64,000 bases of DNA from Escherichia coli. GTDB lineage: Bacteria > Pseudomonadota > Gammaproteobacteria > Enterobacterales > Enterobacteriaceae. Shown piece by piece: positions 53,986-55,259 of the stretch. The notes under the pieces were generated by a model. It ran no database searches. It was not told the origin of the DNA and saw only the letters and a list, made by a program, of their open reading frames with translations. Numbering within the stretch: the first letter of the stretch is position 1; the number at the start of each line of letters is the position of its first letter. The stretch lies in NCBI RefSeq assembly GCF_016903815.1, contig NZ_CP069973.1; one strand, 5' to 3'. The position numbers and the translations under genes were made by a program.

Positions 53986-54891
53986 CTATATTTCCAGACA
54001 TCTGTTATCACTTAACCCATTACAAGCCCGCTGCCGCAGATATTCCCGTGGCGAGCGATAACCCAGCGCACTATGCGGATGCCATTCGTTATAATGCTCG
54101 AACGCCTCTGCAAGGTTCTTTGCTGCCGTTAACCCGTCTGGTTTGGGCATGATACTGATGTAGTCACGCTTTATCGTTTTCACGAAGCTCTCTGCTATTC
54201 CGTTACTCTCCGGACTCCGCACCGCCGTGTTCTTCGGTTCAAGTCCCAACATCCGGGCGAACTGGCGTGTTTCATTAGCCCGGTAGCATGAACCATTATC
54301 CGTCAGCCACTCCACTGGAGACGACGGAAGATCGTTGCCGAAGCGGCGTTCCACCGCTCCCAGCATGACGTCCTGTACTGTTTCACTGTTGAAGCCGCCG
54401 GTAGTGACCGCCCAGTGCAGTGCCTCACGATCACAGCAGTCCAGCGCGAACGTGACACGCAGTCTCTCTCCGTTATCACAGCAGAACTCGAACCCGTCAG
54501 AGCACCATCGCTGATTGCTTTCTTTCACGGCCACTCTGCCTGTATGTGCCCGTTTCGATGGCGGTACAGCAGGTTTTCGCTCAAGCAACAGCGCATTCTG
54601 GCGCATGATCCGGTAAACACGTTTGGCATTGATCGCAGGCATACCATCAAGTTCTGCCTGTCTGCGAAGCAGCGCCCATACCCGACGATAACCATACGTG
54701 GGCAGCTCTCCGATAACATGGTGTATACGGAGAAGCACATCCGTATCATCAGTGTGACGACTGCGGCGGCCATCCATCCAGTCATCGGTTCGTCTGAGAA
54801 TGACGTGCAACTGCGCACGCGACACCCGGAGACAACGGCTGACTAAGCTTACTCCCCATCCCCGGGCAATAAGGGCGCGTGCGCTATCCAC
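53986..54891 (-). CDS. insD: IS2 transposase OrfB (InsD, DDE integrase domain)
   Basis: 301-aa ORF starting [23 protein letters not shown] (GTG start) with DDE transposase domain. Confidence 0.9.
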
Positions 54892-55259
54892 TTTTTTGCC
54901 CGTCCATATTCAACGGCTTCTTTGAGGAGTTCATTTTCCATCGTTTTCTTGCCGAGCAGGCGCTGGAGTTCTTTAATCTGCTTCATGGCAGCAGCAAGTT
55001 CAGAGGCAGGAACAACCTGTTCTCCGGCGGCGACAGCAGTAAGACTTCCTTCCTGGTATTGCTTACGCCAGAGAAATAACTGGCTGGCTGCTACACCATG
55101 TTGCCGGGCAACGAGGGAGACCGTCATCCCCGGTTCAAAGCTCTGCTGAACAATTGCGATCTTTTCCTGTGTGGTACGCCGTCTGCGTTTCTCCGGCCCT
55201 AAGACATCAATCATCTGTTCTCCAATGACTAGTCTAAAAACTAGTATTAAGACTATCAC
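54849..55259 (-). CDS. insC: IS2 transposase OrfA (InsC, HTH)
   Basis: ORF ...[41 protein letters not shown]... with GTG start; overlaps insD in the -1 frame with an A6G slippery site at 54892-54898. Confidence 0.9.

Follow-up and report, generated by a model that had tools for sequence, protein, structure and literature searches.

The overlap between insC and insD in a complete IS2 copy carries a slippery heptamer, A_AAA_AAG, at 54891–54897 (minus strand) of a 64,000-nt Escherichia coli sequence, the whole of which is referred to below as the window. We assign a probability of about 95% to this heptamer being the programmed −1 ribosomal frameshift (PRF) site of an intact IS2, at which translation passes from the insC into the insD frame to yield the transposase OrfAB. 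The frameshift site of IS2 and its downstream hairpin are already known, the latter having been tabulated by Sharma et al. (2014; PMC4066793). Low-level OrfAB production by A6G shifting is likewise taken from the literature, and we infer the same expression for the present copy.

The element spans 53975–55305 on the minus strand (1331 bp) and is an intact, ordinary IS2 of the IS3 family, IS2 group. It has the imperfect terminal inverted repeats typical of IS2, with the left repeat (IRL) starting with TAGACTGGCCCC at 55305 (in longer form, TAGACTGGCCCCC) and the right repeat (IRR) ending with GGGGCAAATCCA at 53975, and is bordered by 5-bp target-site duplications (TSDs), GGAAC, at 55306–55310 on the left and 53970–53974 on the right (all minus strand). 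As reference we used IS2A of K-12 MG1655, the mobile_genetic_element feature carrying insC1 and insD1. Both ends are identical to this RefSeq mobile element, and the alignment matches at 1329 of 1331 nt. The two differences, at element positions 316 (window 54990, minus-strand T) and 606 (window 54700, minus-strand C), are synonymous and lie away from the frameshift window. Alignment to reference IS2 was one of the checks proposed with the original prediction; since the heptamer is the same as in the reference, the mutation that was to count against the prediction is absent. The present copy shares with IS2A its length, ends, 5-bp TSD length, InsC and InsD proteins, heptamer and hairpin, and differs from it in the two synonymous substitutions and in its location: IS2A is inserted in yaiX, whereas this copy sits in an HNH endonuclease gene of an Sf6/HK620-like prophage. 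Megablast recovered the element in 4901 of 5426 complete E. coli genomes, with many copies 100% identical and all matches annotated "IS3-like element IS2 family transposase". Over all of its 64,000 bases the window matches NZ_CP103521.1 (E. coli strain 2779) at 100% identity, and that genome has IS2 at four places.

The two reading frames are arranged in the typical manner of the family. insC (orfA; 54849–55214, minus strand) encodes 121 aa plus stop, from ATG 55214 to a TAA at 54851–54849; its ORF can be extended to an upstream GTG at 55259 in the ORF listing, and K-12 annotation uses the ATG. insD (orfB; 53986–54891, minus strand) starts at GTG 54891, runs for 301 codons with its stop ending at 53986, and occupies the −1 frame with respect to insC. 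Their products are identical to K-12 InsC, a regulator with an HTH domain, and to K-12 InsD, which contains the DDE core. The annotated overlap, predicted to be 43 nt in the −1 frame, is exactly that (54849–54891), and the K-12 insC1/insD1 layout is identical. Upstream of the GTG, the insD frame stays open until a TGA at 54912–54910, giving a stop-to-stop overlap of 61 nt (54849–54909, minus strand), the last 43 nt of which form the annotated overlap.

A single −1 shift would convert 53986–55214 (minus strand) into one coding region for a predicted OrfAB (InsCD) fusion of 409 aa, consisting of 108 aa of InsC (ending EYGRAKK) followed by VDSAR and the remainder of the insD frame. This exact 409-aa protein is public on 106 contigs, named IS3-like element IS2 family transposase, and in NZ_CP103521.1 PGAP annotates precisely 53986–55214 as a two-piece CDS (join) with the note 'programmed frameshift'. 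Pfam detects HTH_Tnp_1, HTH_21, rve and rve_3 on the fusion, which scores 279.5 bits against NCBIfam transpos_IS3 (cut-off 160). Taken separately, insC matches HTH_Tnp_1 and the NCBIfam model 'IS2 repressor TnpA', and insD matches rve, rve_3 and 'IS2 transposase TnpB', both NCBIfam hits being above the curated cut-off. The published catalytic triad of IS2 OrfAB, D240, D306 and E342 (PMC3219604), is intact in the fusion. Overlapping ORFs, orfB in the −1 frame and the combination of HTH and DDE domains constitute the IS3-family transposase layout. The public 409-aa sequence, the intact triad and the identity of both proteins to those of K-12 support the proposal that the fusion is probably still producible.

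At the junction, the insC-frame codons read GCA AAA AAG TGG, so that the heptamer stands in the shift-prone phase, A_AAA_AAG. It had been placed at 54892–54898; its actual position is 54897–54891 on the minus strand, 1 nt away, with a C at 54898. Its reported location within the gene overlap is correct for the 61-nt stop-to-stop overlap, which contains it entirely, and incorrect for the 43-nt annotated overlap, which includes only the last G because that G opens the insD GTG. Its designation as the canonical IS3-family frameshift site is upheld by the phase, by the PGAP note and by the literature, which names A6G as the IS2 slippage window producing OrfAB at low frequency (PMC3219604, PMC3299598). 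The frameshift product was described as a 46-kDa OrfAB by Hu et al. (1996), as cited in PMC3219604 and PMC3299598. AAAAAAG occurs once in the element, where it is also the sole A6 run, and no other XXXYYYN motif in shift-prone phase was found anywhere in insC. Given the frequency of AAAAAAG in the 64-kb window (21, both strands), chance alone would place about 0.003 in-phase copies in such an overlap. In E. coli genes the motif is strongly avoided in the shift phase (z = −10.1), and IS2 insC is classified as a true −1 PRF case, coded 'N/Y' (no SD, conserved structure; Table S4), with reduced synonymous variability (Sharma et al. 2014; PMC4066793). In keeping with this code, none of the scanned SD-like stimulator motifs was present in the 30 nt before the heptamer; such a stimulator is an optional feature of −1 PRF signals and is present in IS911 and dnaX.

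A downstream stimulatory structure, the other feature that was to be looked for, was found by folding. A stretch of 108 nt beginning at the heptamer folds into a long bulged hairpin, and under the rules of Sharma et al. (2014) (17–140 nt in length; start 4–10 nt after the motif; ΔG of at least 7.6 kcal/mol in magnitude; a first G-C pair plus at least three further pairs) the best structure per nucleotide is a predicted 72-nt hairpin at 54813–54884 (minus strand). This hairpin conforms to all of these rules, with a spacer of 6 nt after the heptamer, a 9-bp basal stem (GCGCACGCG/CGCGUGCGC) beginning with a G-C pair, and a ΔG of −36.8 kcal/mol (0.51 kcal/mol per nt). It agrees with the published prediction for IS2, a hairpin of 72 nt with a 6-nt spacer, a 9-bp first stem and 0.539 kcal/mol per nt (Sharma et al. 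2014, Table S8; PMC4066793). Its stability exceeds that of dinucleotide shuffles (z = −2.7) and ranks first among 1168 72-nt windows of the IS2 transcript. The insC stop codon, UAA, lies within the apical part of the hairpin. Taken together, the predicted fold is most likely a stimulator of slipping; our literature search found no experiment testing the IS2 hairpin itself. The stimulator of IS3 is a pseudoknot. We rejected such a fold for IS2 because the hairpin's 5′ internal and apical loops paired with the following 120 nt no better than with shuffled sequence. An Rfam family for the signal was also sought; a scan of the element at permissive E-value returned only unrelated eukaryotic families at chance level.

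Comparison with other members of the family places these features in context. IS911 uses the same A_AAA_AAG heptamer and makes OrfA, OrfB and OrfAB by −1 PRF with a downstream structure; unlike IS2, this IS3-group element combines an upstream SD-like stimulator with a three-way junction, whereas IS2 lacks the SD and has a 72-nt bulged hairpin. IS3 likewise produces its OrfAB transposase by −1 PRF on an A-rich heptamer and differs in possessing the strong 'IS3 stimulator' (Sharma et al. 2014; PMC4066793), with pseudoknot formation being unsupported in IS2. Measured −1 shifting on AAAAAAG was 0.29% for the bare motif, 4.3% when the IS911 stimulator was added and 39% with that of IS3 (PMC4066793).

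We then examined conservation among IS2-like elements from plasmids (65–97% protein identity; 8 distinct sequences in the alignment). The heptamer varies by clade. A_AAA_AAG is found in IS2 and in ISEc27/ISEc36, A_AAA_AAA in a group of ~70% identity, and CGA_AAA_U, with only the A_AAA tetramer left, in a group of ~65–68% amino acid identity (L007–L010). ISEc27/ISEc36 (~86% amino acid identity) resemble IS2 in architecture, in-phase A_AAA_AAG and 72-nt hairpin position, and differ in the codon preceding the heptamer (CAA, which creates an A7G run), in a compensatory U-A pair and in the sequence of the inner helix. Pairing of the 9-bp basal stem is retained in 8/8 distinct sequences (65–100% amino acid identity). 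Its changes comprise one compensatory substitution of C-G to U-A, in ISEc27/36 and synonymous in orfB on both sides, and one C-G to U-G wobble. Most stem columns are invariant and the covariation measures are indistinguishable from shuffle and slide controls; as these statistics are not significant, we do not claim covariation proof and regard the covariation support for the hairpin, as read from the aligned sequences, as thin and at most suggestive. The consensus fold of the 8 relatives retains the basal stem only, each clade forming its own inner helix. Among orfB codons with an invariant, degenerate amino acid, those in the site and hairpin region are invariant in 6/11 cases, compared with 12/118 elsewhere in the gene (Fisher p = 0.001). 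Since the two frames overlap across half of the hairpin, dual coding may explain part of this conservation.

Several further observations were made on these relatives. In L007–L010, orfB begins with ATG at the position aligned with the heptamer, the 9-bp basal stem is identical and at the same distance, and the inner helix is different; two of the four are annotated as single IS3-family transposase CDSs. In an ISEc27-like element, L012 (NZ_CP032074.1), which has no annotation in PLSDB, the orfB frame is interrupted by a TGA a few codons beyond the shift site (GGA TGG TGA, corresponding to ~54861–54859), and this copy is probably dead. The position of the insC stop in the apical hairpin is constant across all relatives examined, falling in identical alignment columns. 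Because this stop position is fixed and the basal stem is kept even where the heptamer is lost, we raise the speculative and very improbable idea, prompted by conserved geometry only, that the hairpin does more than stimulate slipping or that its stem serves a second role. Termination in the loop, for instance, might leave a ribosome holding the stem open and thereby tune the shift frequency of the next ribosome, in which case the OrfA:OrfAB ratio would depend on ribosome density.

In the mechanism we propose, most ribosomes would pass A_AAA_AAG in frame and stop 13 codons later, releasing the 121-aa InsC, a DNA-binding regulator. A minority would slip back by 1 nt with both Lys-tRNAs on the heptamer, re-pairing from AAA-AAG to AAA-AAA, then read GTG as Val and go on in the insD frame to complete the 409-aa OrfAB. 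The resulting protein would join the HTH DNA-binding domain, a leucine-zipper-like motif and the DDE catalytic core. The 72-nt hairpin most likely raises the frequency of slipping, by resisting unwinding during decoding of the heptamer.

The same protein could in principle arise if RNA polymerase added one A at the A6 run, so that OrfAB would be read as one continuous frame from an A7G mRNA. The A7G mutant of IS2 does make OrfAB as its main product (PMC3219604, PMC3299598), and IS1447, another IS3-family element, uses transcriptional slippage on an A run. That run, however, comprises nine A's with at least seven required, and the six in IS2 make polymerase slippage unlikely here. A conserved hairpin 6 nt downstream is, moreover, the geometry of a ribosomal stimulator, and relatives of ~66% identity keep the basal stem with only four A's at the site. 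The IS2 literature (PMC3219604, PMC3299598) and Sharma et al. (2014; PMC4066793) all call the shift translational, and we judge a transcriptional origin very unlikely. Even less probable is that insD is expressed solely by its own initiation at GTG 54891, the heptamer being an incidental Lys-Lys codon pair. K-12 annotation does list insC1 and insD1 as separate CDSs, with a GTG start for the latter, and a weak anti-SD match, AUGGACGGG, precedes the GTG (−6.0 kcal/mol, versus −6.4 kcal/mol upstream of insC). Against this, OrfB alone would lack the N-terminal HTH DNA-binding domain, its function is given as unknown (PMC3299598), and the relatives preserve in phase either the heptamer itself or a slippery variant of it. 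In ordinary genes the motif is strongly avoided in this phase. Initiation at the GTG could coexist with frameshifting as an additional event, not replace it.

The site might also be intact in a relic whose transposase can no longer be made owing to defects elsewhere. Decay is common among genomic IS copies, and L012, with its in-frame TGA, is a probable instance among the relatives. The present copy, by contrast, is complete from one inverted repeat to the other and flanked by an unaltered 5-bp TSD; its proteins equal those of K-12 and the DDE triad is present. Many genomes contain copies 100% identical to it, and in the matching genome IS2 occupies four places. Other strains carry the uninterrupted target site at 100% identity, which indicates that the insertion is recent. 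A dead copy is accordingly a highly unlikely reading, and programmed −1 ribosomal frameshifting in an intact IS2 remains the one we adopt.

The gene interrupted by IS2 encodes a 164-aa endonuclease with HNH_3 and AP2 domains (window 53588–55418, minus strand); excising IS2 together with one GGAAC restores the 164-aa ORF. The uninterrupted gene is found in 13 E. coli genomes, at 100% identity in five of those listed. It lies between the gp10 and tail-needle genes of an Sf6/HK620-like (P22-like) prophage and is absent from Sf6. Being intact in 13 genomes and missing from Sf6, it looks like an optional insertion of the homing-endonuclease type that was subsequently hit by IS2. Two remnants flank the element: a 42-aa 5′ fragment at 55290–55418, ending within IRL, and the PGAP 'HNH endonuclease' of 137 aa at 53588–54001 (minus strand), a chimeric ORF whose ATG at 54001 lies inside the IRR of IS2 and which overlaps the end of insD before reading into the 3′ part of the HNH gene. 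The prophage is an Sf6/HK620-like Lederbergvirus adjoining tRNA-Arg(CCT) at 42760–42834 (regions 42760–44153 and 44300–64000), with intS at 42996–44153. From capsid to gp10 it matches Sf6 at 99.2% identity and Escherichia phage vB_EcoP-683R2 at 99.9%, and the interval between the tailspike and integrase genes contains genes for a GDSL-type esterase/lipase and a DUF1796 putative cysteine peptidase, possible morons. Also within the window are mnmC (18084–20090) and truA (~10.1–10.9 kb). mnmC acts in the final step of mnm5s2U34 formation on tRNA-Lys(UUU), the decoder of both slippery codons, and truA is the pseudouridine 38–40 synthase; both modifications have been reported to affect frame maintenance. 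Their presence in the same window is coincidental, and no functional link to IS2 is implied.

These findings bear on annotation, on the prophage and on the host. The locus is properly annotated as insC plus one insCD (OrfAB) CDS that includes a −1 shift. The HNH gene is inactivated within the late operon. Lying co-directionally with the phage late genes, IS2 could exert polar effects on those for the tail needle, ejection proteins and tailspike, and the insertion may bear on prophage viability. Since everything needed for the transposase is present, the IS2 copy is potentially mobile, and may be a source of further insertions or rearrangements in the host strain.
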